DNA of 27,609 bases from a virus (taxonomy: Duplodnaviria > Caudoviricetes): positions 1-27,609 of IMG/VR virus record IMGVR_UViG_3300037422_000064, one strand, 5' to 3'. Below the pieces are notes generated by a model. The model worked only from the letters and a program-made list of their open reading frames with translations. It searched no databases and was not told the DNA's origin. Of the stretch, positions 1-26,519 are shown piece by piece. Every line of letters starts with the position of its first letter. Position 1 is the first letter of the stretch. The translations under genes and the position numbers were made by a program.

Positions 1-172
1 CGCCTGACGGGATGCTCGGTAACGTTAAAACGTCAACGTCGCCGATGTTGTTCGCGCCTGCCGGGATACTCGGCAGGGTCAAAACATCGACGTCACCGAT
101 GTTATTGGTCCCGGCCGGGATTGACGGAAGGGTCAGCACGTCGATGTCGCCGATGTTGTTTGTGCCTGCGGG
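1..172 (-). repeat. 54-bp coding tandem repeat (18 aa PAG[TA]NNIGD[IV]DVLTLPSI), 3 full copies plus the start of a 4th
   Basis: Units at 172-119, 118-65 and 64-11. Protein sequence is nearly identical between units while synonymous codons differ. Confidence 0.9.
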
Positions 173-310
173 AAGGGGTGCGCTGATAGCGACACTCGAT
201 CCGCTTACGTCTTGGATGGCCGTTCCTAAGTAGCTGGACACGGCTTCTGCTCGGCCCGCGAGGGCCAGCAGGAGCAACGTTGCGATGGTCTTCATGTTCA
301 TTTTCTTCAT
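2..310 (-). CDS. Secreted repeat protein, truncated at left window edge (not in ORF track)
   Basis: Manual translation: MKKMNMKTIATLLLLALAGRAEA|VSSYLGTAIQ...PAGTNNIGDIDVLTLPSI... The ATG at 310 overlaps the TGA of the upstream gene (ATGA). Signal peptide ends in an AxA site (AEA). Confidence 0.85.
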   Translation of the reverse strand, partial: MKKMNMKTIATLLLLALAGRAEAVSSYLGTAIQDVSGSSVAISAPLPAGTNNIGDIDVLTLPSIPAGTNNIGDVDVLTLPSIPAGANNIGDVDVLTLPSIPSG

Positions 311-762
311 CTCCTGATGGTGCATTTTGCTTTGTAGGTTCCGTCGGGCGAGCAGTTTGAGAATGTCGCTTTATGGGAGCCTAGCAAAATTCTTTCGCCG
401 GCCAGGCCGGTCCTGCCGACCAGGCGGCGTATATTTCCAAAGATGGGAAACTCGTCTGCATCGTTGGTTACTATTTCAAAGTCAAACGAGGCAGCGGCGC
501 TTGGAGGCACGAGGCCGCAATGAGTAATGGTTCCCGTCGATGAAAAGACGGCCGTTCCTGTGCCGCCTGCCGTCACGATAGAAACGGAAACGAGGTCAAA
601 TTCTGCCGTTGCTGTGATCGTGGCCGTGCCGATATCTACGCTGATCGGGTCGGCGTTTGCCACCTCGACCTGCTGGAGTTCCTGGTCCAGGTAGGAGCTC
701 GACTGCGCCCGTGCGGCTTGGGCGGCGGTCAGCAGGATGGCGACCAAAAGAAATTTTATCAT
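307..762 (-). CDS. Secreted beta-rich hypothetical protein (signal peptide), paralog of 759..1046
   Basis: MIKFLLVAILLTAAQAARA|QSS signal peptide; ATGA coupling at both ends; C-terminal domain resembles 759..1046. Confidence 0.8.
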   Translation of the reverse strand: MIKFLLVAILLTAAQAARAQSSSYLDQELQQVEVANADPISVDIGTATITATAEFDLVSVSIVTAGGTGTAVFSSTGTITHCGLVPPSAAASFDFEIVTNDADEFPIFGNIRRLVGRTGLAGERILLGSHKATFSNCSPDGTYKAKCTIRR

Positions 763-1046: not shown

Positions 1047-1333
1047 CAGTGACTAATGCCTCCGTTCTTTCTGCGTGCAGGTCGCCCGAGCAGTTGATCC
1101 ATGCCGTCAACCAAGTATTGAATATCGCGGCGCATGATTCCAAGTTCCACGTCGTGGCGGGCGGTGTGCGAGGTCGTGGCCTCGATGCGCGTTTCCATCT
1201 TTTCGGAGGATCGTTTCAGAGCATCGATCTCTGTGCGCGTTCCCGTGGTCCCGGCCGTCAGAAGACCGTAGGCTGTGCCGGCGCCGAAGGCTATACCGAC
1301 GACCCATTTGGCGATCTCGCCGCCGATTCTCAT
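1046..1333 (-). CDS. Single-TM plus coiled-coil membrane protein (holin/XhlA-like or inner spanin candidate)
   Basis: N-terminal hydrophobic segment WVVGIAFGAGTAYGLL followed by a heptad-like helix and a basic C-tail; located in the post-tail cassette. Confidence 0.55.
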   Translation of the reverse strand: MRIGGEIAKWVVGIAFGAGTAYGLLTAGTTGTRTEIDALKRSSEKMETRIEATTSHTARHDVELGIMRRDIQYLVDGMDQLLGRPARRKNGGISH

Positions 1334-1554
1334 AGACCAAAAGACCGGGGATCATGCCTGTCGATCTTTTGGTCTTCCTCTATGCTCATGACGCGCTCGA
1401 CGCATTGGTCGAGTTTAATCGCCATCTCGGTGTGAACCTGCGATAGATTCTTGACACGCTCCTGGCAGGCGGCCAGTTTCGTGGCGTCCTGGCCAGTGCA
1501 TCCACAGGCGAACATAACGGCCGCGGCGGCGATGGCGTAGGCGATATATTTCAT
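1330..1554 (-). CDS. Putative lipoprotein (outer-spanin-like candidate)
   Basis: Start reassigned to ATG 1554 (ATGA overlap, GGAGG RBS). MKYIAYAIAAAAVMFACG|C is lipobox-like and is followed by a short coiled coil with 2 further Cys. Confidence 0.6.
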   Translation of the reverse strand: MKYIAYAIAAAAVMFACGCTGQDATKLAACQERVKNLSQVHTEMAIKLDQCVERVMSIEEDQKIDRHDPRSFGL

Positions 1555-1709
1555 CGGCTGACCTCCGTGAAGCGTTTTTCCACAAGGTCGCAAAGGCTAC
1601 GAATAGCCGAGGCGATCTCGGGCTCTCCAAGGTCTTCAAATTTAAAGGCGACGTGCCGGATGCTGATGAGGCCGCGGATGACGGATTTCATGCCTTCGTC
1701 GACGATCAC
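1551..1709 (-). CDS. 52-aa hypothetical protein (not in ORF track)
   Basis: GTG 1709 overlaps the upstream TGA (GTGA), GGAGG RBS, and TGA 1551-1553 overlaps the next ATG. MIVDEGMKSVIRGLISIRHVAFKFEDLGEPEIASAIRSLCDLVEKRFTEVSR exactly fills the gap. Confidence 0.75.
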   Translation of the reverse strand: MIVDEGMKSVIRGLISIRHVAFKFEDLGEPEIASAIRSLCDLVEKRFTEVSR

Positions 1710-2956
1710 GCGATCCTCCGGGCCCAATAGGCGACGAGGAAATCGAGGCTGTTTTGGCGGTTGTCGGTGGCGCCGTCAAGTTGATATGGATTCCTCTGCC
1801 AGTGGAAGTCCTGCGGGGGCCTTTGCCACGCCGGCAGGGGTTGGGCGGCGTATTGTCGGCCGCCCCATTCGACTTTCTTAATCAACGGATTTTCCGTATT
1901 TCGGATCATCCCCGGGCCTTTGCCGTTGGGCATATCTGTGGCGGCCGTGAATTCAAGAAGGACCTGCTCGGCCAGTTCCTCTTGGCGCGATCCTACGGAG
2001 ACGCCGTTCATCTTGCAAAGAGCCACAAGGAGAGGGTTGGTCTTGCGTGCGTATTTCCCCGCGAGGATCCGCAGTCCCTCGCGGGCTTCGGGGTGGCCGG
2101 CGTCGTTGGGATAGGTCATGGCGCAGTAGGCGGCCGTCAGGAGGATGGCCATGTTGTCGTTGTAGTAGCCTTGCTTCCATAGGAAGTGGGTTTCGGTGCG
2201 GGCAAACTCGGGAGCGTAGTCCCGCGCGAGGTTGTACCATTGCGGGAGGCCGCGATGGATGAGGCCTAGGCGGGCCATCGCCGTGGCCGCCAGGTTGCGG
2301 ACAGGGGCCTGGAACGGGCCCGGCCGGCAGTCACCGTGGCGGGTAACGCTTCCGTCCCGGTTCTTGAGGCAGTAGCCGTCGGAGATAAAGCGTTGGGCGT
2401 ATTGGCCGATGCGACGGTCCTGTTCCGTGTTCAAAGGCAGATATTTGCTAGCCATAGCCACGCCGAAAATCCAACCGGCCAGGCTGTCGAGGCTGGCGTC
2501 TTCCCTTCTCAGGCGGCCGTCGGTGTCGTGCCAGTATTGGCCGGCCTTGCTCTCGTCGGGCTTGTAGACCGTGCCGTCATAGCGATTGGGCGTTATCCCG
2601 CGCAGGAGGATGTCGTCGGAGAAAAGAAGGAGCGCGTCCAGGGCATCTGAGGCCGCCTGCTTGGCTTCTGCGGTTGGTCTGGCCTTGTAGGCCATGACTC
2701 GCATGGCGGCGTAGATGCCCTGGTGGACGCATAGGTCGCCGAGGTCGTTTACAATGCTGTAAACGTAGAGGCCGCGGTCCTGCATGAAAGGCGCCAGGCC
2801 GCTGTCAAGGGCCGCCGCTAATTTTTCCATGCGGTCATGCTCGAGCGTTTCTCCGGGCCGTAGTTCCAGTGCCCGCGTGAACGGTTCGAAGGGCTCCGCG
2901 GCTTTGTTGGCGGCGTCGACGATTCCTAGCAAGGCGGCCTTGATCTTGGCGAACAT
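1706..2956 (-). CDS. Predicted (alpha/alpha)-toroid, six-hairpin glycosidase-like enzyme; function unknown
   Basis: Start reassigned to ATG 2956 (GGGAG RBS, 1 nt after the fibre stop). Helical protein with motifs GDLCVHQGIYAA, DASLDSLAGWIFG, GYCLKNRDGSVTRHG and PLPAWQRP..FHWQRNPY..DFLVAYW, recalled from an uncharacterised bacterial alpha/alpha-barrel family. Confidence 0.6.
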   Translation of the reverse strand: MFAKIKAALLGIVDAANKAAEPFEPFTRALELRPGETLEHDRMEKLAAALDSGLAPFMQDRGLYVYSIVNDLGDLCVHQGIYAAMRVMAYKARPTAEAKQAASDALDALLLFSDDILLRGITPNRYDGTVYKPDESKAGQYWHDTDGRLRREDASLDSLAGWIFGVAMASKYLPLNTEQDRRIGQYAQRFISDGYCLKNRDGSVTRHGDCRPGPFQAPVRNLAATAMARLGLIHRGLPQWYNLARDYAPEFARTETHFLWKQGYYNDNMAILLTAAYCAMTYPNDAGHPEAREGLRILAGKYARKTNPLLVALCKMNGVSVGSRQEELAEQVLLEFTAATDMPNGKGPGMIRNTENPLIKKVEWGGRQYAAQPLPAWQRPPQDFHWQRNPYQLDGATDNRQNSLDFLVAYWARRIA

Positions 2957-2957
2957 T

Positions 2958-4898
2958 TTAATTACTCCCGGCATATGTAATCGAGACTTCAAAGCTATAG
3001 GCGCTCGTCCCGTTGAGGGTCCTGGCAGTGCCGGTCTGTTGCCATGCTTGACACTCGACATAATCTCCGGCGACAAATCTCCAATGCGTGCCGAGACTGA
3101 TAATCGGATCGCCCGATCCCGTTCCGCTTTGCCCGCCGCTTGTTTCGTGCTGTTCTACCGCGATGACCGTCGCGCCGTTGACGATGAATCTGAGCGCGGC
3201 TGTTCCGTTCGCATTGCCAAGATCAAATTCTCCGTTGCAAAAGAGATTATAAAAACCAGTCCGGGGGATTGTCATCCTTGAAGGATTGACGCCGTTATCG
3301 TGATAGTTCGATGTGTCCCATCGCTCATTGAGTGACGGGGTTGTCCAGGTTGCGTTAGTGAGGCTTGTCCCGGATGCCTGATTCGCTCGGCATGAGTCGC
3401 CCTGATATTGCAAGAACGGCGTCGCCGCGCCGCTGTTGTGAATGACGAGGTCCGGGCTCGCTTGCCCGTCGAAGTCAAAGCAAAGAGCGTCGGATTCGCA
3501 TTCGGAAATGACGTAGTCTTGCGATCCGGCCATATCAAACTTCGCCTTGATCGCCCCGGTCCCGGCCGTCTGCCCGGCCCCGACTCTGATCGAAGTTGAG
3601 ACGACGAGTTGATTTGTAAACGTATTCCCGCCCGTGAATGTTTGCGTCGCGGCGAGGACCGCGTCGCCGCCGCCGGTCGAAATGCAGGAGCCCGCCGTCG
3701 TTATGCCGCCTTTGATAACCGCGCCGCCGACGGCTTGACCGGCCGAACAAGAGACCGTCGTCCCGGCCGTTGTGCCCTGCTTATAGACTCCCGAGACGTT
3801 GATATCGCCGCCGACGCCGAGCTTGTCAGTCGGAGTGCTCGACGATATTCCGACGTTGCCGCCGTCTTTGATCGTCATAGAGACGGCATCCGTCCAGACG
3901 CCGCCAACGAGCTTTATATCCTTGCCGGCCACGTTCGGGCTTATAAGCATATGCCCGACGGTATTTGAGAGCATAGAATCCCCGGCGACGGCGTTGCCGA
4001 TCGACCCGGAGAATGTCGTCATTCGATGTTCGCCGCCGCCCGCCGCGCCGTTTGCGACACGGACGGCCGTGTCGGCTGTGCCGGCATCGCCGTAGACGTC
4101 GAGATTGAATTGAGGGTTGTTCGTGCTAATACCGACTTCGCCTCCGGGGCTCTTGATAAAGAGATCAGCCTGCCCGCCGCTGACTCTCATGCTCGCGTCG
4201 ACGTTAGAGACCCAGGCATTCTCGGTCTGACTTGATTCGAGGGCCATCGTCGAGAATGTCGCGTCGGTTAGTTGAAGCTTGCGTACGAGCGACGACGTCG
4301 TGACGGGGAAAGTTAAATCAAGCGTATAGGTCGGGTCGGCGTTATTGATACCGAGGCGGCCGTTCTTAACGGCGAGCGTCGAAGTCCCGACGGAGAATTG
4401 ACTCCCGACGATCGTGCCCGTGCCCGTCGTTATCAGTTGCCCGGCGATGTAGGCCGTACCGACGTTATGCAGGGGATACAGCGGGAGGCTCGTCCCGATC
4501 CCGAGCTTGCCGCCTTGCGTGAATCTCCAAAGCTCCGAGCCCACGTTATTGCGGCCCGAGACGATTGGATGATTGTCCGTCGCGGTCGTGCTCTTGAAAA
4601 TTGTCGACGAGGCGATGCTGATATGATCGACCGTCGAGACCGCGCCGATCGTCGAGACGTAGAGCGTCCCTATGTTGCCGGTGCTGAACGTCGAATTGAC
4701 GATCGTCCCCGTCGATATCTTGTCGAAGGTGCGGTTGATGCATCCCAGGAAAAATGTCCCCGTCGCGTCCGCCCTGATCTTCTCGAGAGTGAGGGCGCCT
4801 GTCGTATCTTGGCATCCCTGGCCGGCGGCTCGCGCGGGTATGCGCGAAGCTCCTAAAAGACCCAGGATGATTGCGGAGACGGTTAAAATCTTTTTCAC
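2958..4898 (-). CDS. Tail fibre/receptor-binding protein with N-terminal Sec signal peptide and C1q-like C-terminal head
   Basis: Follows the hub gene; GTG start with GGAGGT RBS and GTGA overlap. Four Gx[LV]GI repeats (GKLGIGT, GRLGINN, GEVGIST, GNVGISS), a QTFTGGNTFT fibre motif, and a C-terminal RMTIPRTGFYNLF...GDYVE C1q/TNF-like pattern. Confidence 0.75.
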   Translation of the reverse strand: MKKILTVSAIILGLLGASRIPARAAGQGCQDTTGALTLEKIRADATGTFFLGCINRTFDKISTGTIVNSTFSTGNIGTLYVSTIGAVSTVDHISIASSTIFKSTTATDNHPIVSGRNNVGSELWRFTQGGKLGIGTSLPLYPLHNVGTAYIAGQLITTGTGTIVGSQFSVGTSTLAVKNGRLGINNADPTYTLDLTFPVTTSSLVRKLQLTDATFSTMALESSQTENAWVSNVDASMRVSGGQADLFIKSPGGEVGISTNNPQFNLDVYGDAGTADTAVRVANGAAGGGEHRMTTFSGSIGNAVAGDSMLSNTVGHMLISPNVAGKDIKLVGGVWTDAVSMTIKDGGNVGISSSTPTDKLGVGGDINVSGVYKQGTTAGTTVSCSAGQAVGGAVIKGGITTAGSCISTGGGDAVLAATQTFTGGNTFTNQLVVSTSIRVGAGQTAGTGAIKAKFDMAGSQDYVISECESDALCFDFDGQASPDLVIHNSGAATPFLQYQGDSCRANQASGTSLTNATWTTPSLNERWDTSNYHDNGVNPSRMTIPRTGFYNLFCNGEFDLGNANGTAALRFIVNGATVIAVEQHETSGGQSGTGSGDPIISLGTHWRFVAGDYVECQAWQQTGTARTLNGTSAYSFEVSITYAGSN

Positions 4899-7450
4899 GA
4901 TAAGACCTCCTCGAGCAACATCTCAGCCTGGTTGGCGTCCAGATTCGGTTTGTATTCTACCACTTTCATGTCAAGATCGCGGGCCAGGACGTTTTGGGCC
5001 TCGCCGGCCATGAAATAGGCGAAGCCGGCCTGCAATGGATCCCCGGCGATGGTCTGCTTCAATAGCGGATGGTCAAAGACGGAGACCGTTATCACGTCGG
5101 AAAGTTCAAGCCACGGGATGATCCATGTCGATATTCGCAGTTTTCTTTTCGGCCTAAAGCCAGCCTCGTAAATTGCCTGGGCCCGGCCGCGACCAATGTT
5201 CACGTCGTTTGCCAGGAGCAGTTCATAGGCTTCATCTTGAACGATGCGGCCGTACTCCTGCTCGGATGTCGGGCTGGCTTCGCCGGCATCTGCCCCATCG
5301 TACTCATTAAAATATCCGTTATATCGGACGCGCCCGACGTTGATTATGTCTTCAAATCCCTGGTCGGCTTCATTTACGCTGATGATGGCATTCTCTTGGT
5401 TAATCTCCAATATCGGAGAAGGCGTCACATCCTTGGGTCTGAAAAAGAATTTACCATCCCCGTCGAGGCCCATTTCGTAGTTTGAAATCTGGGCATAAAC
5501 TTCTATCGCGTCGAAGCAGTTTTGTCCTGAGAAGTTGGCAAGGGCCACGAAGACTTGCGTGTTCTGGAAATTGGCGACCAGCTTTTGAGTCTCCGGGCTT
5601 GTCCATGATCCAGAGGCCGGCGTAATTTCGACCTTGATTTTCAAGTACCTTTTCAATGCCGACAATATTTCCCCAGCCCCGCCTACGGCAACATAGGCAT
5701 CGTAGGGCCCGCCGGAAATGCTGGCGACTGCTGTTGAGTAGGTTATTGTGCCGCTGTTTAAGACGTGTGTCCTTTCCAAGATTCCCCAGGACGTAGGTGC
5801 GGCCAGAAGATCAAATTCCTCAGATTCATAGACTGCGGCGGCATCGCTCGCGGCCACGGCCGATCCGTCGAGCTCTTGGGTCCAGTGGATTTCGTCGATG
5901 ATGAATCCAGAGGAAACTCCGGTCGAAGCATTGACCTGATTGACGCAGAGCATCATGTGCGTATTGGTCGAGTGCGTTGTGTCGGTCGCCGTCATTATAA
6001 GAGAGCCATCATCGTAGACGTTGAAGTTTCCGCTGGCATCTCGGGTCACGCGGATATCTCCGACGGACGTGAATGCCGTAGAGCTCGCCAGGACGGTTTC
6101 AACCGTTCCGCTGACGGTGTATTTCACTAATTGGATTGGCACTCCCAAGCCGCCGCCGCCGCCCAAAACCTTTAGGGCGTAACCGTTTCCTGTCGGGAAA
6201 TTGCCGCTGAAGGCGTTGGAGTCCAAGAAAAAATACCATCGAACGTCATTTCCGACGGAGGATGGATTGAGTTGGTCAAGACCAAACTTGTCGACCTTAA
6301 ACCTCCATGATCCCGTGTTCTTTGCGACGCGCCAAGGAACGGAAACAAGGATATTCCCGTTTGCAGTTGATGGATGCGTTACGGTGAATTTGCCGCTGGA
6401 AACGGATACCGTCCCGCCGGTGTTGACGTGGACCGTCCATGTCGGGTCTAAGGTATAATCTCCGTCGGTGAAATTGTCCTGTAAGAACCACTTGCGGATG
6501 ATAGACCCTGGGAAGGCATCGGTCGAGATGTTGGTCTTAGCGGCTCCGGCGGCCTCCCATTGCGCTTCGGTGTCGATAGTCTTTGAGCCTGAAACGCCTC
6601 CGGGGAACGTGACAGGAACGATTGTCCTTTCGCTCGATATGATTCCTGCTTCTTCGCAGAGATCGGCCACGAGGCTTTCGATGGCTTGGTTTGTTTTCCA
6701 GCGAAGTCCGGAGGCTTTCACTGTGTGACCTGCCGTCGGAGCTGTCGTAAATGTTATGCGTGCTCTGCCGGTAACTCCCGGCTCAACGACTTGATTCAGG
6801 TTATCGACGCGCCAGTCCGTGCCTTGCGTCAGGCTGGATGCGTTCACTTGAACGTCGGTCAAATGGTCCACGCCGACGGATGTTGTTTCAAAAACTTTAT
6901 TGCTCCCATCGCCTGTGGCGGGAATACAGTTTTCCAAGGTGAATGTGAACGAGACTTTTTCGGCGTCTGCGTTTTCAAGAAGAAGGCCGCGGCTTGTCAC
7001 TTCGAGGACGACCTCGTCATCTTTGGAAGTCGGCCTGGAGCGCACTATAAGGCCCGTGAATAAGGCGGTGTATTCCTTCGTGCCGTCTTGCTTGAGGTAG
7101 CCGAATTGGACCTGAACCTGGGTCTTATAGAGGCGATAGCCGAGGGTGGCAATGGCATCGGCCGCGAATATCGACGGCGGCGCGGTGCCCTGGATCCATT
7201 CGTTGTTGGTATTGTCAAGCCGGACGGAAATCTGAGATGTGCGGTAGACGTTGGCGCGGGGCGTGTCGAGTTGCATGGGAATGGGCCCCACGCCGATGAT
7301 CTTGGAGTCGTCGAGGTCGGTCCAATTGGCCTCGTAGACGAAGGCTGATCCGTTCCAATAACGCCGCTTATATGATACTTTTCTGAAATCCCGGCCGCCC
7401 TGCTTTTTTTGCCAGACGTCTTTGAAGGCTTGGGAAACGGGGCGAGCCAC
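4895..7450 (-). CDS. Tail tip/baseplate hub (Tal-like) protein with inserted beta-sandwich domains
   Basis: Start reassigned to GTG 7450 (TAGTG overlap); the longer ORF-track N-terminus overlaps Dit and is Arg-rich noise. Hub-like segments LFTGLI, LDGDGKFFFRP, SEQEYG and PWLELSDVITV; position after TMP and Dit. Confidence 0.7.
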   Translation of the reverse strand: MARPVSQAFKDVWQKKQGGRDFRKVSYKRRYWNGSAFVYEANWTDLDDSKIIGVGPIPMQLDTPRANVYRTSQISVRLDNTNNEWIQGTAPPSIFAADAIATLGYRLYKTQVQVQFGYLKQDGTKEYTALFTGLIVRSRPTSKDDEVVLEVTSRGLLLENADAEKVSFTFTLENCIPATGDGSNKVFETTSVGVDHLTDVQVNASSLTQGTDWRVDNLNQVVEPGVTGRARITFTTAPTAGHTVKASGLRWKTNQAIESLVADLCEEAGIISSERTIVPVTFPGGVSGSKTIDTEAQWEAAGAAKTNISTDAFPGSIIRKWFLQDNFTDGDYTLDPTWTVHVNTGGTVSVSSGKFTVTHPSTANGNILVSVPWRVAKNTGSWRFKVDKFGLDQLNPSSVGNDVRWYFFLDSNAFSGNFPTGNGYALKVLGGGGGLGVPIQLVKYTVSGTVETVLASSTAFTSVGDIRVTRDASGNFNVYDDGSLIMTATDTTHSTNTHMMLCVNQVNASTGVSSGFIIDEIHWTQELDGSAVAASDAAAVYESEEFDLLAAPTSWGILERTHVLNSGTITYSTAVASISGGPYDAYVAVGGAGEILSALKRYLKIKVEITPASGSWTSPETQKLVANFQNTQVFVALANFSGQNCFDAIEVYAQISNYEMGLDGDGKFFFRPKDVTPSPILEINQENAIISVNEADQGFEDIINVGRVRYNGYFNEYDGADAGEASPTSEQEYGRIVQDEAYELLLANDVNIGRGRAQAIYEAGFRPKRKLRISTWIIPWLELSDVITVSVFDHPLLKQTIAGDPLQAGFAYFMAGEAQNVLARDLDMKVVEYKPNLDANQAEMLLEEVLS

Positions 7451-8274
7451 TAGGCGCCTCCGACTTCGCGCACGTCGAAGCCGACTGCATAGCCTCCCGA
7501 GCGCGAGCGCGTGATGTAGTTCTCGGTAAAGGTACCGGGCTCGATGCCTGCCTGGAAGATGTCGGCCTCGACCTCGGCCGGCTCGGGGATAACGATGAAA
7601 GGCTCCTGCTTGTGGAGGTCCTTGAAGTCTTGAACCTCTGTAGACGTTAAGCCGATGAAGTTCATGGCCGCGCTGTAGAGCCACGGAGAGGCGTCCGATC
7701 TGTAAACGTAGGCCCGTCGGATGCTGTTGTCGTGCATGACGGCCGTCTTGGCCTTGACGATAGTGTTTTTCTTCTTGTACTGCTGTAGCATGACGGGCGA
7801 TTGGAAGAGCTCGTCGGCCACGATGATATCACCGACCTGCTTTTCCTGATTGGCGGTCTGTGTCGTATGCATCGTTATCCGACATCGGTCGGCGAAGAAT
7901 GGAGCCGCGACGACCTGGCGGGTGTTTGCCGAGGCGACGAGGGTGAAGTTGTAGACGCCGGCGGTCCACGTCGAGCCTCCGTCGTTGGAAAACTCGACAT
8001 CGAAGGCTTTTAAATTGTGGTTCATGATCGCAAAATAGCCGATCTGCTGTGAAAGGACCGTGCCCGGAACCCAGAGGCCAAAGGTTATAGTCTCGTCGAT
8101 AGTATCGTTTGATCCCGAGGAAATCCAATAGCTCGCAGGGTCCATGTCAAAGAGGCGGTGCCGGAGATCGGTCATGCTCGAAACCAAAAGATCGCCGTTG
8201 TTGTAGGCGTTGCGGTTTAGCTTGTTGCCCGTCAGAAAGATGGGCCGGCCTCGGAGCGTTAAATCAAGAGCCAT
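7450..8274 (-). CDS. Distal tail (Dit-like) protein with N-terminal discoidin/galactose-binding-like domain
   Basis: Start reassigned to ATG 8274 (TAATG overlap with the TMP stop). LFDMDPASYWIS...FDVEFSNDGGSTWT is discoidin-like; position directly after TMP. Confidence 0.65.
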   Translation of the reverse strand: MALDLTLRGRPIFLTGNKLNRNAYNNGDLLVSSMTDLRHRLFDMDPASYWISSGSNDTIDETITFGLWVPGTVLSQQIGYFAIMNHNLKAFDVEFSNDGGSTWTAGVYNFTLVASANTRQVVAAPFFADRCRITMHTTQTANQEKQVGDIIVADELFQSPVMLQQYKKKNTIVKAKTAVMHDNSIRRAYVYRSDASPWLYSAAMNFIGLTSTEVQDFKDLHKQEPFIVIPEPAEVEADIFQAGIEPGTFTENYITRSRSGGYAVGFDVREVGGA

Positions 8275-11728: not shown

Positions 11729-12070
11729 TTACAGTTTTAACACGGCCACGTCGAGGCCCGTGATCTCGGAGAGAGTAAACTTTGCATCTCCGTTTCCATC
11801 GTTGTAAATGGCCGGCGGGAAAGGCCCGACCATTACATCTCCCGTTGTTGCGGGAACGTTCACCGTCTGTTCTGCGACTGCCAGGCCGCCAATCGTCGGC
11901 GGTGTCTGGATCGTGACCGTGCAGCCTCCTGCGCCCGACTTCCTGAAATGCAGGAAGGTGTGCCCGTCATTTCTGACGAGGTAGGTGTCGGAAACGCTAA
12001 GGCTTCCGGTCCTGGTCGGCGTGGTCCCCGATGCGGCCATCTGCTGAGGCGTTAGGGTTACGTTTGCCAT
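11729..12070 (-). CDS. Virion-associated beta-sandwich protein (tail module hypothetical)
   Basis: AGGAG RBS; NDG..FL.....G...TVT....VPA......GPFP...YN pattern recalled from phage structural modules. Confidence 0.65.
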   Translation of the reverse strand: MANVTLTPQQMAASGTTPTRTGSLSVSDTYLVRNDGHTFLHFRKSGAGGCTVTIQTPPTIGGLAVAEQTVNVPATTGDVMVGPFPPAIYNDGNGDAKFTLSEITGLDVAVLKL

Positions 12071-12861: not shown

Positions 12862-13232
12862 TAGGCTCTATGCCTCCGAAGAAGGACGGATTTGTGGTCT
12901 ATCTTTGGGCCGCGCGATCTCTCGCTCACGGCCTCGACGTCAAGCTGTTGCTCGACGACGGTCTGGCCGCGCCTGTCTTGCAGGCTGAACACTCTATCCC
13001 CGCTTCGGATGTCGACGTCGGCCGGGAAGATGCCGCGGATTTCCTCGACGACGACGATCTTGCCGCCGTCGGCCACTTCCTTTTTCTGGCTGATCCAAAC
13101 AAAGCAGGGCGCCTCGGCCGCGATTATAGACCACACGGGAGTGACGGCCTTGCCGCCATAGCTGTCGGCGGGGGCAATGTCTCTTTGCAGGTTCGCTCTC
13201 ATGGTCATGCTCGCGCGGGCGATGCTGATCAC
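12861..13232 (-). CDS. Head closure/stopper (SPP1 gp16-like) protein
   Basis: Start reassigned to GTG 13232 (GTGA overlap, GGAGG RBS); DSYGG...W and DIRSGDRV motifs; synteny. Confidence 0.75.
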   Translation of the reverse strand: MISIARASMTMRANLQRDIAPADSYGGKAVTPVWSIIAAEAPCFVWISQKKEVADGGKIVVVEEIRGIFPADVDIRSGDRVFSLQDRRGQTVVEQQLDVEAVSERSRGPKIDHKSVLLRRHRA

Positions 13233-13756
13233 GCCACAATCCTCCGGCTGGTCGACGCGAATGCAGAGAGAAGGCGCTCCCTTTCGGCCTGGTAATTGTC
13301 GAAGTTCTGCACGCGAACGTCGCCCACCGAGCTTGACAAAACGCCGTCGTACTTCAGGGCCAGCTTGACGAGGTCTATCTCGAGGCGCTTGCGCGAGATC
13401 GTTGTGTCTTGGGGAACGTACACGATCGTATTGGTTCCGATCCAATGCGGCTGTGGATTGGTCCCTTGCGTCAAACGCTCGAGCTGATAACCGTCGCCGA
13501 GCAGGAGGTAGTCGTTTGCCGCCAGGACGGTGTTTATTTCCTCGATGCGTTGCGTAATCGACGTGATGCTGGACGCCTTGCGCGTCAGGAAAAGAATCTT
13601 TCCGTCGCAGACAAGCACGTCGGTGTTTGCGGCGGCCGCGCCGAGCCTTCTGATTATCTCGGCGTCGGCGTCATCGATTAGCCTCTGGAGAGCATCGTCA
13701 ACGAGGTCTGTCTCGATGTGTTGCCTGACTTCCGCGACTGTCAAAAGGCTCGGCAT
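13229..13756 (-). CDS. Head-tail connector/adaptor (HK97 gp6/SPP1 gp15-like)
   Basis: LLTVAEVRQHI...DDALQRLIDDADAEI N-terminus and SSSVGDVRV C-terminal motif. Confidence 0.85.
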   Translation of the reverse strand: MPSLLTVAEVRQHIETDLVDDALQRLIDDADAEIIRRLGAAAANTDVLVCDGKILFLTRKASSITSITQRIEEINTVLAANDYLLLGDGYQLERLTQGTNPQPHWIGTNTIVYVPQDTTISRKRLEIDLVKLALKYDGVLSSSVGDVRVQNFDNYQAERERLLSAFASTSRRIVA

Positions 13757-13759
13757 GAG

Positions 13760-14026
13760 CTATTCCTTCCCTTTCTTCTTGGCCTTGTTTGCTACTTGCG
13801 CGACGGCCTTGTCTTCAACGGAATCGGCTTGCTTTACGAGGCCGAGTTTTCTGGCCATGACTGGATCGACCGCGTGGCCTTTAGCCGCGAGAAGAAATGC
13901 GGCTTCTGGGCTATCTATCGGTACGATCTTCGTCTGCGCGGCGTTGATGTAGAGGTCTTTTTCCGCAATCACGGGAGCGTGATCGACGGGCTTCGCTTCT
14001 CGCCATCTTTCTATCGTGAGAGCCAT
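13760..14026 (-). CDS. Hypothetical protein, head module
   Basis: GGAGG RBS; fits between the decoration-like gene and the connector; K/A-rich tail. Confidence 0.7.
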   Translation of the reverse strand: MALTIERWREAKPVDHAPVIAEKDLYINAAQTKIVPIDSPEAAFLLAAKGHAVDPVMARKLGLVKQADSVEDKAVAQVANKAKKKGKE

Positions 14027-14042
14027 GCGTTCCTCCGTGCGC

Positions 14043-14306
14043 TTAAACGAAAGCGCAGACTTTAAACTTCTTGCCGCTCGTCACGGTGGCGATGACGTTC
14101 GTCGCGTCATGTGATCCCTCAACTGCGGTGTACGCTCCGACCGTTGCCGGCGCGGTGTCCGTTGGGACGATGAGCACGGCTCGCGGGATAGTTCCCATGC
14201 CGTGCGCGATGTTCTGAGGGGCTCCCGTCCCGGTCTGCTCGGACGAGATGAAATAGGCCGGTCCCTTCGCCCCGGTTATGACGTTGCCTCCGCTGATGAT
14301 TGCCAT
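14043..14306 (-). CDS. Putative capsid decoration/head fibre protein
   Basis: CAGGAG RBS; directly after the MCP; beta-rich with IAHGMGTIPRAV (the HGLGxxP motif of small phage beta-domains). Confidence 0.6.
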   Translation of the reverse strand: MAIISGGNVITGAKGPAYFISSEQTGTGAPQNIAHGMGTIPRAVLIVPTDTAPATVGAYTAVEGSHDATNVIATVTSGKKFKVCAFV

Positions 14307-15627: not shown

Positions 15628-16799
15628 CGCTTGCTTCCTCCGGTGTGTGTTTGGGCGAGGTTCTTTTCGAACCGCGCCATTTCTTTGACCAGATCGCCGC
15701 TGTGATCCTCTGGCGTCAAGACGCCGGCGATCGCGGTGCTGGCCTGCTGGAGCGCTTTCATGACGTTTAGCAGGCGCTCCCTGCTGTCCTGGGCGATAGA
15801 TCGCCCGTCTTTCGCGCGGAGGTCAGCAAGCGACTTCGCACGCTCTGCGAGATGCCCGACGGCTTCAAGCGCCGCGTCAGCCTCATCGCAAAATCTTTTC
15901 CCCTTGGCCGCGTTCGTGGTCTGCATGACCATTTCTTCTTCTTGCGCCGGTGGGGTCGCTTCTTTCAACGGCGGCGGCTCAACGCCCGCGTCGCGCAGGT
16001 GCTTAGCCAGGTGATTGTAGACGCCGGACCTGTCGGCATCGGGAATGTCTGCCCCGCCTCGGCCGCCGTTCAAGACGGCGATGCCGGCGATGAGGCCGCG
16101 CACGTTGGCCGCGCCCGGGTCGCCGTTGGCCGAGACTTCGTGGTGCGGGAATTTGTACGAGCTCTTGGCCCCGGAGTCGCCTTGCGGGTTCTTCCAGGCA
16201 AAGACATGGGCATAGTAAGCCTCGTTTTCTTCCTCGCGGGCCCGGCGCACATTCTCTGGGCCGTCCCATGGCCGGTCGACCGTGGGCGTGTCGTGGGCCG
16301 GCAGGGCGGTTTTGAGGCCCTTGGCGTAGAGCGTCCCGGTGTTCTGGCCCGCGCCAACGAGCACGGGGGAGACTTCGTGGACCTCGAGGCCCGGCCGGCC
16401 GTCGGTCAGGCCGCGCAGGAAGCGAACGCGGCGGCCGTCCATTTCCCCGTCGCCGACGCCGCCCTCACGGATGTTGAAGCCGTAGGACCATTCTTGCAGG
16501 GGCTTGCCTTTCTCGAGGTCAAACTTCAAGGCCGTGAACCATTCCTGCCCCGAGGCGATGCCCATGTTCATCTGGATTTCTGCGATGGCCTGGTTGCCTT
16601 CCTCGCGGATGACGCCTTTACCGATCGGGATATGGCTCCAATCGTGGGCCGGGACGACGACGACTTCCTGCTCGCCGAAGGCTCCGGGGAGAGTGACGTC
16701 GCCGTCTTTGTCTATCACGTTCAGGGTGGCGATGACTGCGCGGATGACGCCGGAGTCCTTGAGTTCTTTGATTTCAATTGTCTTGCGGTACTTTTTCAT
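15624..16799 (-). CDS. HK97-family prohead protease with extra C-terminal domains
   Basis: Start reassigned to ATG 16799 (TAATG overlap). IDKDGDVTLPGAF, HDW..PIGKG, WSYGF and EVSPVLVGA match Peptidase S78-type motifs. Confidence 0.9.
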   Translation of the reverse strand: MKKYRKTIEIKELKDSGVIRAVIATLNVIDKDGDVTLPGAFGEQEVVVVPAHDWSHIPIGKGVIREEGNQAIAEIQMNMGIASGQEWFTALKFDLEKGKPLQEWSYGFNIREGGVGDGEMDGRRVRFLRGLTDGRPGLEVHEVSPVLVGAGQNTGTLYAKGLKTALPAHDTPTVDRPWDGPENVRRAREEENEAYYAHVFAWKNPQGDSGAKSSYKFPHHEVSANGDPGAANVRGLIAGIAVLNGGRGGADIPDADRSGVYNHLAKHLRDAGVEPPPLKEATPPAQEEEMVMQTTNAAKGKRFCDEADAALEAVGHLAERAKSLADLRAKDGRSIAQDSRERLLNVMKALQQASTAIAGVLTPEDHSGDLVKEMARFEKNLAQTHTGGSKR

Positions 16800-18835
16800 T
16801 ACGCCTCCCTTCCGGTAAAAACAGGCACAATATCCCGAGTGCCGTTGGGGTGTTCTTCGGCGAGAGATTGCCGGGCTTCCGCGATCGTGACCACGGCGCC
16901 GTTTATCTCCATGCATTCCTCGTCTGTTTCCCCGAGGCGGGCATCCAGAATCATGACCATCTCGCCGGCGCCCTCGAGCGCGGCGTATGCCCGGAGGGCT
17001 GATTCCGTCTGCGCGAAGCGGGTTTCGGTCCTGGCGATAACGTCTGCGCGAATCTTGGAGCTTGACCAGGGCCCCGCCGGGATCGCGTCGCGTAGCCTGC
17101 GGGCTACTTCAGGCACGCCCAGGTCTTCCTCGCGGGCGGCCCGGACGATACCCAATGCTTTCTGCGTGGCATCTTCTGTCATGCCGACGAGGCCGGCCCG
17201 CGTGCCGCCGAAAGACAATATCTCAAGCTGGACGGAGTCTGGAAGCCGCACGCCGAGGCCCAGGTTCCCCAGGCCGGACATGACTTCGTTGTGGACCGCG
17301 ACGTAGTGCGACCCGAAGATGCCGCGCAATTCGGTGCGTCGCTCGGGCACGTTGATTTGCTCGAAAAGCCTGCGGACGCGGAGCTCATCGCTGTCTTGCT
17401 TGGCGATACGAAGCCAGAGGCGCTCGACGTCTTTGCCTAGGTCGTCTAGGAATTTCTCGATCTTGCGCCTAAAGGCCGGCTCCATCTGCTTTCGGACGCG
17501 GTCCATGGTGCGGGCGATCCGGCTCTGGAGGCGCGTCATGCGCTTGTTGGCCTTGGCCCCGTCTTCAGCCGGAGGCGGCGCTTGAACGTTTTGTAGAACA
17601 GGCGGCGTCTGTTCTACTTCCTCTGCGGCGGGCCCAGTTTCAAAGGCCGAGACGGGCCGCAGGAAAATCTCATGCTCAGGCAGGACTTCGAGGCCGGCCA
17701 TCTTGCGGGCTTCCGAGACCATCATCCAGCCGCCGCTGACGGCGCGGTTGATGCGCTCGCTCTGCTTGTCGAGGTCGTCTTGCATGGCGCGGACGCTTCC
17801 GTCGTCGAATACGACTTCGCCTTCGGAGCTGAAGTCAGGGAGAAGCGATCGCGTCAGGTCGGCGGCCATGAGCGTCTGCATCGGGATGATGCCGCCGGTC
17901 CATGCCAGCCGGCGCATTTCTTCCATGGTCGCGCCGACCTTCGTCTGCTCGATGCCCGTGCCGAAGCCGACGATGGCGGCCGGGATGCCGAGAAGGGCAC
18001 AGACTCTTTCCTCGGTCAGATTACGAATACCGGACAGGTCCATCTTGTCGGGCGAGAGGCCAAACTCTTGCACGCGCGTGGCCGCGCCCAGGACCATGGG
18101 CTCGCCACGGTGGTCGCCTGTAAATTTGGTCTTGATGTAGTTCTTCGTGACCTCGACGTCTTCTGGGGAAATGGAAACGTCCTTTTCGGGGGTGATGATA
18201 AGACCGGGAATCCCGGCGTTTCTCAGCAGGCCTGCGACGTAGTTCGATGCCTCGTTGTCCATGAAAATCTCGCGCATGGCCGATCCCAAAGGCGCGAGGC
18301 CCTTGCGGACATTGCGCGGGTCGATGCCGTAGCGGAAATGGACGACGTCTTCCGGCGCCAATCGGATCATGCCTTCGGTGCCGCCAGGTCTGTACTCGTA
18401 ATAGCTGATGAAGTCGCGGCCTTCCCATTTCGGTTCGATGTGCCAGTGTGGTACATACCAAAGTTCAGAGGGCTGGCGGCGGGTGCCTTTTACTTTCAGC
18501 CAGTAGGCGTTCCCGTCAAGGCAGAATGAAAAGAGCGTGCCCATCCAGAGAGCGTCGCCGGAATAAAACGGGTTCGGATTGTTGACGAGTTTAGCGAGAG
18601 GGTGCTGTTGGTTGACGACTTCTTCGCCCTCTCGGTTGGTCTGCTTGACGGCGATCTTGGCTTCTGGAAAATTACGGGCGATCCAAAGGACGGGCGCCAT
18701 GACGACGTTGGAGCTTATGCCGTCGCCCACTTCTCGGGCGTAATCAAATTTCGTATTCGGCAAGAGAGACATAACCCACGGAATGCCGCGGCCGTGGATC
18801 ATTTCGTTGAGGGCCTTGACGATGCGCTTGATCAT
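16799..18835 (-). CDS. Portal protein (HK97 family) fused to an SPP1 gp7/Mu gpF-like minor head domain
   Basis: Start reassigned to ATG 18835 (ATGA). Portal motifs HPLAKLVNNPNP, LDGNAY, VVHFR, GLAPL and NAGIPG; C-terminal RADVIARTETRFAQ...HPNGT gpF-like segment. Confidence 0.9.
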   Translation of the reverse strand: MIKRIVKALNEMIHGRGIPWVMSLLPNTKFDYAREVGDGISSNVVMAPVLWIARNFPEAKIAVKQTNREGEEVVNQQHPLAKLVNNPNPFYSGDALWMGTLFSFCLDGNAYWLKVKGTRRQPSELWYVPHWHIEPKWEGRDFISYYEYRPGGTEGMIRLAPEDVVHFRYGIDPRNVRKGLAPLGSAMREIFMDNEASNYVAGLLRNAGIPGLIITPEKDVSISPEDVEVTKNYIKTKFTGDHRGEPMVLGAATRVQEFGLSPDKMDLSGIRNLTEERVCALLGIPAAIVGFGTGIEQTKVGATMEEMRRLAWTGGIIPMQTLMAADLTRSLLPDFSSEGEVVFDDGSVRAMQDDLDKQSERINRAVSGGWMMVSEARKMAGLEVLPEHEIFLRPVSAFETGPAAEEVEQTPPVLQNVQAPPPAEDGAKANKRMTRLQSRIARTMDRVRKQMEPAFRRKIEKFLDDLGKDVERLWLRIAKQDSDELRVRRLFEQINVPERRTELRGIFGSHYVAVHNEVMSGLGNLGLGVRLPDSVQLEILSFGGTRAGLVGMTEDATQKALGIVRAAREEDLGVPEVARRLRDAIPAGPWSSSKIRADVIARTETRFAQTESALRAYAALEGAGEMVMILDARLGETDEECMEINGAVVTIAEARQSLAEEHPNGTRDIVPVFTGREA

Positions 18836-20295
18836 GCGAGGGGCCTCCATGCCGTTGGCGATTGTAGCATACCGGAGGCGCCGAATAATACTAAGCCGAT
18901 CGCATCGGCTCGGTCGGGGCTTTTGCCGAGGCGCTTCTTCATGTCCTCTTTGCTCTCGACGCGGATGCGCCCGTCGGAGTCGATCTTGTATTTGACGCTC
19001 GAGAGCTCGGCTTGAAGGTCGGGATCCTTGGGGATGGCGACGGCATTGGGATTATCCGGGTTAAGACTCTCGCGCACAAACCACCATATCTGCGAGCGCA
19101 GATTCGTGAAACGCTCCTGATCGTCTTGCTTGCCGACTGGGCTCTCGGCCACGTTGATACCGTGGACTGGCTCGCCCTGCTCTTTGAGGCGATCAACAAC
19201 ACCGGCCCCAAGGCCGATAGCATCGACGTAAATCTTGCGGGCGCCGATCTCGCGGCGCTTGGCCTTAACCCATCCGACGGTGGCCATGGTGTCTTGGCCG
19301 TGGCGAGCCTCGAGGGGAAGGATACGCCGGCCCTTAGCCACGGCGATAACGCTGTCGTCGTCGCCGAAGCGGGCCACGTCGACGCCGATGTCGGTGGCTT
19401 TAGCTGTCTCGGGGACTTCGCGCATGGATGCCTTCTCGATCCAGTCCAGAGGGATGAGGGTGTCGGATTCCTGGTTGGGATATTCCGCGTCGAGTTTGAC
19501 TCGGCAGAAGTTCGAATCCGGGCCGTACTTGCGCCGCCATTCCCCTGCCTGCTCGGGGTGGAGCATCCCGGGGTAAACGATGCGGCCTTCAGTGAAGTTG
19601 GGCGTGTCGGTGTCGGCGATCTTTATGTTGTGCCAGAGGTGCGCCTGGTCGTGCGTGCAGTCGTAGGTGAGGCCGGCCAGGACGGCGGGGTTGTAGAGCA
19701 TTAAGATGTGCGTGTTGCCGCCGGCCATCATGTTCTCGATCTCGTCGAATAGCTCCTTATCGATGCCGTGAGCATCGTCGACGATCAAGAGGTCGTTGCG
19801 GCCGTGGATGCCGTGGACCATGTTCTTGTCTTTTGTTGAGAAGCCGAGGGCGTACCAGTTTTTCCCGAGCTTGAATTCTGTCGTTTCCATCATCTTGCCG
19901 CCGAGGGGCCGGCGGGCCTTGGCGTGCATATCACGCATCTCGCCCCAGAGGTTTGTCTCGACCTGGCGGTAAGACGGCGCCAGGGTGAAGACGCGCGATG
20001 GCTGATAGGCGAAGACCCACGCGAGGGCGGTCATGGCCGCGGCGTTGGTCTTGCTCGAGCTCACGCATCCCCTGACGGCGACGCGGCGATGCTCGAAGAC
20101 GGCGCGGGCGATATCGACCTGCTTGGTCCATGGATTCATTCCAAGGACGGAGCGCATGAAAAAATCAGGGCTCTGTCGAATCTTTAGGCGCAGGTCCTGG
20201 GCTTTGGCCGGCAGGTTTTTCTTCTGGCTCGGGATCTCCGGCGAGGAAATCTGCGAGGGTAACGTGGCCTGAGAGCTTGACTGTGGCGCGGTCAT
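18832..20295 (-). CDS. terL: Terminase large subunit
   Basis: PWTKQ Q-motif, RRVAVR..SKT Walker A-like, LLIVDDA Walker B-like; RNase H-type nuclease motifs IGVDVARFGDD, VDAIGLGAG and SPDRADA. Exact start uncertain because it overlaps TerS. Confidence 0.92.
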   Translation of the reverse strand: MTAPQSSSQATLPSQISSPEIPSQKKNLPAKAQDLRLKIRQSPDFFMRSVLGMNPWTKQVDIARAVFEHRRVAVRGCVSSSKTNAAAMTALAWVFAYQPSRVFTLAPSYRQVETNLWGEMRDMHAKARRPLGGKMMETTEFKLGKNWYALGFSTKDKNMVHGIHGRNDLLIVDDAHGIDKELFDEIENMMAGGNTHILMLYNPAVLAGLTYDCTHDQAHLWHNIKIADTDTPNFTEGRIVYPGMLHPEQAGEWRRKYGPDSNFCRVKLDAEYPNQESDTLIPLDWIEKASMREVPETAKATDIGVDVARFGDDDSVIAVAKGRRILPLEARHGQDTMATVGWVKAKRREIGARKIYVDAIGLGAGVVDRLKEQGEPVHGINVAESPVGKQDDQERFTNLRSQIWWFVRESLNPDNPNAVAIPKDPDLQAELSSVKYKIDSDGRIRVESKEDMKKRLGKSPDRADAIGLVLFGASGMLQSPTAWRPLA

Positions 20296-21221: not shown

Positions 21222-21589
21222 GCCTCCGGCCTCTGGGCGGCCGCGACGCCGGGCCACCAGCCCCACCTGCACATCAAGGCGATGAGGCCATAGTTGGCGA
21301 CATCACCCCAGGTGTCATCGCGCGTTTCGTCGGCCGGCTCTTGCTCGGTTCTGTGGAGGTTGGCCATGCGCTCGATCTTATCCGAGGCGCGGACCATGAC
21401 TCCCATCTCGCCGAATTTTGCGATATTGCCCGGGCCGTACTTGCCTTGCTTGTGATCGAAGACGCGGGCGGCGGTGATGGCGGCTCTCAAGAATTGAACG
21501 GTCAACGGTTCCTTGGCCCCGATTTTCAACGCGACCTGCTCTGCGATGTCTTCGTAGTCGGAGAGTTCCGGCTTCGCAAACGAGTTCAT
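21218..21589 (-). CDS. Nucleotide-modification-associated domain protein (DUF1599/Nmad1-like)
   Basis: Start reassigned to ATG 21589 (ATGA, AAGGAG RBS). K..KYG..NI..FG..G..VR..DK..R..NL...E...DT..D.ANY pattern. Confidence 0.75.
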   Translation of the reverse strand: MNSFAKPELSDYEDIAEQVALKIGAKEPLTVQFLRAAITAARVFDHKQGKYGPGNIAKFGEMGVMVRASDKIERMANLHRTEQEPADETRDDTWGDVANYGLIALMCRWGWWPGVAAAQRPEA

Positions 21590-23019
21590 GCTGTTCTCCT
21601 TTCGGCTTTCTTGCCCACGAAATTTTCCCATCTCTTGACAATAACATCGACGTAGGTCGGATCGAGTTCTGTTCCGAAGCATCGCCGGCCCATGACTTCC
21701 GCGGCGATAAGAGTCGATCCCGACCACAAAAACAAATCGGCCACTATGTCTCCGGCTTTCGTCGAGTTGGCCATGGCCCGTCGCGCGAGCTCTACCGGCT
21801 TTTGCGTCGGGTGCTTGTAGCCGTGGTCGCGGCCTATTTCCCAAACGGTAGATGCGGGATCCGGGCACTGGAGGATGGCCGGTCGGCCTTCCTCGACGCG
21901 AATGGCGCGGACGCGCTTGGTCTTGGGTGCTCGGGTTTGTAGATAAATCTCCCCGCCTTTGCCGTCGCGCAGGAGAATCCCGGTGGCGAGGGCCATAGAG
22001 ACGGCGGCCTTCGTCTGCCATGCCGCCCGCCAGATGGTGCTTTGCGTGCGGTCGCCGTAGAAGGCCGGGCTGTCGCCTTGCTTGACGGCGTAAAAGCATG
22101 GCTCGTGGGCCCAGTTGTAATCCGCGTGGCCGAGGGTGATCCCGGGCTTGGCCCAGATGATGTATTGCCTTTCGATGAGGCCGGCGGCCTTCATGGCCGC
22201 GGCGAAGTCTTCGCGCGTCGCGCTCGGATGCCAGATATAGAATGCGGCCTTTTCCGTGACGATGCGGACGGCGTTTTTAAAGGCGCCGACGAGCATAGCC
22301 ATGAGGTCATCGCCCTGCTTGGCGTCGCCCTTAATCACGTCCCATGGCTTTGTGTTTCCGGCGTAGCTCACGCCGTAAGGGGGATCGGTGAAGACGCAGG
22401 CGGCCCGTTCGCCGGCGAATAGACGGTCAACGGCGGCCGGGTCAGTAGCGTCGCCGCAAAGAACGCGGTGCTGGCCGAGGATGTAGAGATCGCCGGGCTT
22501 CGCCTCGGAGGCACCGGGCATGGATGGCGGGACTTCATCTTCGTCCTGGCGGGCATCTTTGTCGTGGCCCATCATGGTAAAGCGTTCGTCGGCCAAAAAT
22601 CCGGTAAGGTCAAGGTCAAAGTGTCCGTCGTCCAATTCCGCGATGATGCTTTTGACTGCGGCCATGTCGAAATCTCCGCGATGCTTATTGGCCGCGAGGT
22701 TGGCCGCCTTCTCTTTTCGCTCGGGCCAGTCGACTTCGCGGTAGGCGAGGCGGCCCCATGGCGTTTCGATGTAGCCTGCGGCCACCTGGCCGGTGGCGTC
22801 GGTCATCTCCTGCTTTTCTATCACCCATGCCGGCTCGAGGTTTTTAATGCGCTGATGGCCGCTGATGAGATTACCCGTTCGAACGTTAACGACGATGCCG
22901 CCGAGATCGCCGAATTCGCGCAGGGCCCGACCGAGGGCGGCGAGTTGCTCTTTACTGATCGTGCGCGGGTTGTACGCCGCGGGCTTGAGATCGCTTACGC
23001 GCTTTTTTCCGTTTGGCAT
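21586..23019 (-). CDS. ParB-like N-terminal domain plus N4/N6 DNA methyltransferase (beta class)
   Basis: LKPAAYNPRTI and ISGHQR (ParB/Srx); HRVLCGD, TDPPYG, HPTQKP and ELDP motifs. SAM-binding motif reads DLFLWSGST instead of the usual FxGSGS/T. Confidence 0.9.
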   Translation of the reverse strand: MPNGKKRVSDLKPAAYNPRTISKEQLAALGRALREFGDLGGIVVNVRTGNLISGHQRIKNLEPAWVIEKQEMTDATGQVAAGYIETPWGRLAYREVDWPERKEKAANLAANKHRGDFDMAAVKSIIAELDDGHFDLDLTGFLADERFTMMGHDKDARQDEDEVPPSMPGASEAKPGDLYILGQHRVLCGDATDPAAVDRLFAGERAACVFTDPPYGVSYAGNTKPWDVIKGDAKQGDDLMAMLVGAFKNAVRIVTEKAAFYIWHPSATREDFAAAMKAAGLIERQYIIWAKPGITLGHADYNWAHEPCFYAVKQGDSPAFYGDRTQSTIWRAAWQTKAAVSMALATGILLRDGKGGEIYLQTRAPKTKRVRAIRVEEGRPAILQCPDPASTVWEIGRDHGYKHPTQKPVELARRAMANSTKAGDIVADLFLWSGSTLIAAEVMGRRCFGTELDPTYVDVIVKRWENFVGKKAERRTA

Positions 23020-26248: not shown

Positions 26249-26519
26249 GATGTTCCTCGTACAAAATGCACGCCTGATCTTTCAGTCGGATATCGGTTCC
26301 GGGGCCGTTAGTGATTGGTGCCTTGCCGCATTTGTAGAATGTTTTGGTGCAGCGGTTGGCTTTGACAAATTTGCAAGACCTGCAAGTCCGACCTTCGGGT
26401 CCTGCGCCGCGCACGTCGGCCCATGGCTGGCCCGACCGCCGGCCGCCGCGGCCTCTTGAGTATCCCGGCGCCTGCGCGACTGCGATCCATTTGGGGTCGC
26501 CGAAGATTGGATTAGCCAT
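26220..26519 (-). CDS. Small Cys-rich (possible Zn-binding) hypothetical protein
   Basis: GPEGRTCRSC...YKC...TDIR....AC; overlaps neighbours at both ends. Confidence 0.7.
   Translation of the reverse strand: MANPIFGDPKWIAVAQAPGYSRGRGGRRSGQPWADVRGAGPEGRTCRSCKFVKANRCTKTFYKCGKAPITNGPGTDIRLKDQACILYEEHHDQSHRNKI

Follow-up and report, generated by a model that had tools for sequence, protein, structure and literature searches.

A conserved predicted secretion signal on a siphophage tail fibre points to a probable periplasmic step in tailed-phage assembly

To our knowledge, the particles of tailed phages are taken to be assembled wholly in the cytoplasm. T4 fibres and P22 tailspikes are attached last, and their attachment is possible in vitro. 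Filamentous phages make structural proteins (pIII and pVIII) with leaders and with periplasmic disulfides, as we propose below for a siphophage fibre, but their particles are extruded through the membrane without lysis, whereas the phage considered here is an HK97-fold siphophage. Lack of a signal peptide has been taken to indicate phage origin, according to the available part of one report (PMC6199706), and the literature consulted, as far as its accessible text goes, contained no description of exported virion fibres in tailed phages. On the cellular side, the mosaic adhesive trimers (MATs) of Bdellovibrio combine a signal peptide and a conserved N-terminal domain with a mosaic, phage-like shaft and head, as set out in the accessible portion of their description (PMC10769870).

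The stretch of DNA analysed here (the window; 27,609 nucleotides) is a single 27.6-kb contig of an uncultured virus with an HK97-type siphophage gene set. Its minus strand carries the capsid (PF05065), portal (PF04860), tape measure, tail tube and completion genes, assigned with Pfam, and the tail module runs from the tape measure gene through a distal-tail-like and a hub-like gene to a leader-bearing fibre gene, a gene for a 416-aa protein and small lysis-like genes (Table 1). The names 'hub' and 'distal-tail' were taken from gene position and are to that extent provisional; comparison of the hub with a podovirus stabilisation protein gave no match. No second fibre-like gene lies between the tape measure and the lysis-like genes. 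The 416-aa protein directly behind the fibre (1706–2956, minus strand; homologue in L012 at 12940–14202) is leaderless and had no match in Pfam or PHROG; its look-alikes in the ESM Atlas are unnamed clusters, the nearest named family there being an alpha/alpha toroid, and its position is held in relatives by an amidase, a DUF5675 gene or another lysis-like gene. Elsewhere, the 683-aa portal (16799–18850, minus strand) has a weak C-terminal match to Phage_Mu_F (E 0.0097) and may be a fusion, and two ORFs (21586–23019 and 26512–27609, minus strand) look by eye like DNA methyltransferases. A close relative of the window, the viral contig L026, has a 94% identical tail-tube accessory protein and ends before the fibre. 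Neither a prophage nor a host was found, as scans of genome contigs with the N-terminal-domain profile and the hub profile, the former also run on metagenome contigs, returned nothing; searching viral contigs with the hub as a single sequence likewise gave no hits. The sole clue to the host is a hint from P0044, a protein from an Elusimicrobiota MAG, which shares shaft modules with the fibre.

The fibre ORF (4898 to 2958, minus strand) encodes 646 aa and begins with a GTG that overlaps the TGA stop of the hub gene as GTGA. An earlier note on this DNA had called the start well supported on account of this coupling and a GGAGGT ribosome-binding site, and we agree: AGGAGG lies 7 nt upstream, and codons 2–118 include no further ATG, GTG or TTG. 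Codon 20 is ATA, preceded by AGGAG 8 nt upstream. The leader described in the same note, with a basic n-region, an h-region and an A-x-A site, was also confirmed; it comprises two basic residues, a hydrophobic stretch (Kyte–Doolittle mean over 7 residues at most 3.1) and an A-x-A site for cleavage behind residue 24, so that the n-, h- and c-region features of a Sec/SPase I substrate are present at the supported start, as judged, like most leaders here, by a crude self-written n/h/c-region rule, which is a heuristic and not SignalP. The rule was passed by five of 597 internal segments of the window's proteins and by one of 113 of the fibre itself; among genes of the window it called none of 18 head, tail and packaging genes, none of five other early genes and four of the six genes behind the fibre. 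A wrong start or a chance hydrophobic patch was ruled out by the start signals and this low background rate. Leaderless, cytoplasmic synthesis, which is usual though not strictly defining for siphophage fibres, is on this prediction a feature that the fibre gene of the window lacks. Two of the genes behind the fibre may be remarked on: the repeat protein at the window end is built of tandem repeats of about 19 aa, and the 74-aa protein is a candidate spanin subunit.

Table 1. Positions of the features discussed; those of the window unless a relative is named
Feature	Position	Strand	Basis or remark
Repeat protein with predicted signal peptide, cut by window end	2..310	-	leader rule; phrog_9224 E 8e-10
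151-aa late gene with predicted signal peptide	307..762	-	leader rule
74-aa gene, leader and 4 Cys, lipoprotein-like	1330..1554	-	leader rule
Fibre, C1q/TNF-like jelly-roll, residues 487-646	2961..3440	-	AF2 mean pLDDT 90.5 and Foldseek
Fibre shaft, G-x-V/L-G-I repeats, residues ~100-430	3609..4601	-	phrog_9942 tail fiber E 1.3e-4; common to P0044
Fibre, conserved N-terminal domain, residues 25-62, invariant C29 and C53	4713..4826	-	family alignment
Fibre, predicted Sec (SPase I-type) signal peptide, residues 1-24	4827..4898	-	crude rule; conserved in kind, 17/18 family proteins
Shine-Dalgarno AGGAGG, within hub gene 3' end	4906..4911	-	7 nt upstream of fibre start
Hub-like tail protein, ~850 aa, leaderless	4895..7447	-	phrog_1887 tail protein E 3.6e-5; start approximate; stop overlaps fibre start
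Distal-tail-like protein after tape measure gene, leaderless	7450..8274	-	discoidin PF00754 E 0.0012, below cut-off
Tail-tube accessory protein, leaderless in window	11729..12070	-	phrog_16194 tail protein E 1.2e-12
Leader protein and Wzy_C pair, in relatives	L007 (=L004) 2206-4473; L017 1896-4227; L038 5654-8045; L042 6665-8885		

Behind the leader, residues 25–62 are likely to be a tail-attachment segment, to judge from the family alignment and a weak, transitive link to leaderless fibre starts, and the modelled C-terminal domain is the predicted receptor-binding head. The best Foldseek match of the head was the phi812 spike knob (9eul; E 3e-10, TM 0.76), and others were the BC2L-C lectin domain (2wq4), the A-1(L) short-fibre domain (8ke9) and the receptor-binding domain of TM4 gp23 (9n6a). 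The gene product has three features of a siphophage fibre, namely a position behind the tape measure, distal-tail and hub genes, shaft repeats and a head of the receptor-binding type. Searches with the whole protein found no sequence match in Pfam, PHROG or the PDB, and residues 1–140 gave only unnamed or sub-threshold clusters in the ESM Atlas. The nine cysteines counted in the earlier note are at residues 29, 53, 384, 405, 467, 473, 503, 554 and 616. The fibre also has six N-x-S/T sequons and 22% Ser+Thr, which we do not count toward glycosylation, and its mature chain has no evident membrane anchor.

Protein searches and a full HMMER search collected, besides the query, 17 distinct proteins that have its domain of about 40 aa. 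All but one of these 18 pass the leader rule, the sole failure lacking only a basic residue. Residues C29, T32, G34, L38, K40 and C53 are invariant, with a Cys spacing of 24–25. Between pairs of members the leaders are on average 41% identical and the domains 55%. The cysteine pair that the earlier note had singled out, together with the leader, for comparison among homologues is thus kept in 18 of 18. Conservation ends near residue 70, and the sequence that follows the domain differs in all members (240–999 aa), one of which (P0005) ends in a Peptidase_S74 chaperone. On the alignment, the family architecture is that of a constant base carrying exchangeable shafts and heads. It shares with the MATs, as far as the available text describes them, a signal peptide in front of a mosaic phage-like fibre, S74 being found in some MATs as in P0005. 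However, the MATs are cell-encoded surface adhesins with a beta-rich domain of about 130 aa after the leader, whereas the query appears to have its shorter Cys domain there and its gene lies inside a phage tail operon; no PDB chain matched the query sequence. The total number of cysteines is even in 16 of the 18 family proteins as against 40 of 83 leaderless hits, and Cys density is 1.34 as against 0.51 per 100 aa, but the query itself has an odd number, and the remaining leader-positive hits show no bias (10 of 20 even).

The earlier note had likened the mature N-terminus to the segment with which many phage fibres start. The bracketing of this segment by C29 and C53 was confirmed, whereas the resemblance proved to be weak and transitive, running through intermediates to phiM5 gp19. 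The motif T-x-x-L-x-L-x-K-P...W-G...L-N starts the leaderless tail fibres of Sinorhizobium phage phiM5 (gp19; MF074189) and MW202496, and it is also found in two leader-bearing, Cys-free hits, P0077 and P0094. The mature chain of P0077 starts at the residue where leaderless fibres start, and its stretch matches six of 50,697 phage records. Among them is phiM5 gp19, matched at its leaderless start and annotated as a host-binding fibre 'detected in phage particle proteome'. The corresponding Cys-bearing stretch of P0086 found 12 records at E 2–9, among them phiM5 gp19, the others being annotated as tail fibre, minor tail or hypothetical proteins. With the 18-protein Cys profile, the starts of phiM5 gp19 and MW202496 outscored all of 2000 shuffles, and the score of Tunturi_4 gp112 was reached by 40 of 2000. 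The query alone matched the Cys-free profile at E 0.87, profile–profile comparison of the Cys and Cys-free sets gave a probability of 13.8% (E 0.002), and comparison of the N-terminal profiles with the PDB produced no meaningful match to a solved structure. The mature N-terminus of the fibre probably corresponds, weakly and through intermediates, to leaderless fibre starts. The query and phiM5 gp19 are alike in this related segment at the mature start, in the fibre shaft and in tail-module position; unlike the query, the leaderless fibres have no N-terminal Cys pair, and phiM5 gp19 has no Cys at all.

After merging of same-phage duplicates (L004/6/7/37; L005/11/12), hub- and accessory-anchored scans left 11 different phages, counting that of the window, whose sequence continues beyond the end of the hub gene. 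This count omits the loci that break off within the hub (L016, L020, L022, L023 and L042), and L001–L003, which have only shaft repeats in common with the query, were excluded. The first gene behind the hub bears a leader in nine of the 11 (window, L004, L012, L013, L014, L015, L017, L018 and L038; eight by rule and L013 by eye), each with the domain or a variant of it; in L017 the second Cys is absent at the expected position. The earlier note had raised the matter of a downstream start in homologues, and in each of the eight post-hub genes examined the leader start is accompanied by a Shine–Dalgarno motif; these genes have no internal start in common. The exceptions, L019 and L021, have a leaderless post-hub ORF and the most distant hubs (29%), and in L019 leader genes follow further on. 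L021 has a leaderless 83-aa post-hub ORF (~6987–7235) and then a leader-like gene, an order resembled by that of Tunturi_4, where gp112 is leaderless and gp113 and gp114 have leaders; such a leaderless ORF could be a cytoplasmic anchor for exported fibres. More leader-bearing tail-module genes were seen in L015 (2707–3279 and 13449–14072), L014 (from 8624) and L019 (8084–9754), and one of these lies directly after the tail-tube gene.

In relatives, the leader pattern reaches further genes at virion positions, on the reading of their sequences, a point absent from the earlier note. Of 23 viral loci with the tail-tube accessory protein (phrog_16194), 20 encode a leaderless form and three, namely L037 (the L004 phage), L038 and L042, a form with a leader; L013 is a fourth relative with a leader-bearing accessory. 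Cleavage is predicted at most a few residues away from where the leaderless homologues start. Among the 17 loci long enough to include the hub, the accessory leader is found in three of four that are positive for the hub family and in none of 13 that are negative (Fisher p 0.006, the genomes being related and not independent). Directly behind the capsid gene, four phages have a homologous leader protein (~165 aa) and a Wzy_C-type membrane protein, the latter assigned by Pfam in two of the four and linked by tblastn in the other two. The Wzy_C domain (PF04932; E 5.6e-18 and 5.6e-13) lies in a polytopic, O-antigen-ligase-like membrane protein and is the only Pfam domain in this enzyme at E<=0.05; the substrate may be protein or LPS. 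The window and L005/L012 have neither gene.

Leaders are also predicted on virion-annotated proteins of cultured tailed phages, which resemble the query in this respect. Three (gp085–087) of the 12 proteins annotated 'structural protein, MS/MS' at 26–71 kb of the Cellulophaga phage phi18:3 (KC821620) pass the leader rule and the remaining nine fail it, although mass spectrometry of particle preparations can pick up co-purifying proteins. Unlike the query, gp085–087 are Cys-poor (0–3 Cys). In Tunturi_4 (PP885687), the tail-annotated gp113 and gp114 pass the rule; the main text of the Tunturi paper does not mention signal peptide, SignalP or mass spectrometry (PMC11924767), and, as far as this search for terms shows, their annotation does not come from proteomics.

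The predicted secretion signal suggests that the fibre, as the host-recognition part, is likely to mature outside the cytoplasm and would have to join the particle late. Our preferred explanation, which we consider rather probable, is that the fibre is a Sec-exported, disulfide-bonded tail-tip protein that docks on the tail at lysis. The leader would direct the fibre through the host Sec pathway to the periplasm. There the signal would be removed by a cut after Ala24, and the chain would fold with a C29–C53 disulfide and form a trimer, while the capsid and tail core were built in the cytoplasm; docking, with the hub or the distal-tail protein as partner, would follow when the inner membrane is breached. 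The gain from export is likely to be periplasmic oxidation and, in relatives with a Wzy_C gene, possibly glycosylation. Late docking would be kinetically demanding because of dilution at lysis. We advance only tentatively, and with more doubt than confidence, the wider scheme of a lineage-wide two-compartment particle, in which the outward parts (tip fibre, tail-tube accessory and capsid decoration) would be periplasmic, oxidised, glycosylated by a phage Wzy_C transferase and clipped on during lysis, the route spreading gene by gene through added leaders.

The fibre might instead be exported yet never enter the particle, serving as a surface-displayed or released adhesin or receptor decoy on the infected or lysogenic cell. 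The MATs, on the available description, are themselves leader-bearing phage-fibre chimeras (PMC10769870), the shaft modules of P0044 are shared with the query (E 1e-9) while P0044 matches the MAT bd2133 (E 3.7e-5), and further leader genes are clustered behind the fibre. However, the fibre gene is coupled to the hub in nine phages, the usual place of a siphophage fibre, with no alternative fibre-like gene between the tape measure and the lysis-like genes of the window; its N-terminal domain is probably related to phage fibre starts, a leader is also found on a tail-tube accessory for which a role at the host surface is hard to see, and the mature chain is without an evident anchor. We judge display or decoy unlikely, and put it no lower because of the shaft modules common to cellular exported MAT-like fibres. 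It is more improbable still that the leader is a membrane tether, cut or kept later, by which tail tips are assembled at the inner membrane: such assembly in one compartment would avoid the docking problem, and topology is beyond the reach of a sequence rule, but a positive n-region, a short h-region and an A-x-A site form the canonical N-in, C-out pattern, and an oxidising compartment is suggested by the invariance of the two cysteines and by the even Cys counts. We find it hardest to credit that two products are made, a leaderless cytoplasmic fibre for the particle from an internal start and a leader form with a side role. The ATA codon 20 of the window with its AGGAG, an ATG at codon 16 of L017 with GGAG and, in the L004 accessory, Met22 where the mature chain begins could be so read, but the eight fibre genes examined share no internal start, and Met is absent from the mature start in the accessories of L013, L038 and L042.

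We conclude that the leader-bearing fibre is a real, conserved feature, and that it suggests a stage of tailed-phage assembly in the periplasm for which the literature consulted has no description. The idea can be tested now, since phi18:3 and Tunturi_4, with leader-bearing proteins annotated as virion components, are cultured. An exported fibre, if true, would mean that part of morphogenesis takes place in the periplasm and that infectivity depends on when lysis occurs, and it would give access to disulfides and glycans. The annotation and expression of such genes would change, and the exchange of fibre modules between phages and the MAT-like adhesins of cells would be explained.
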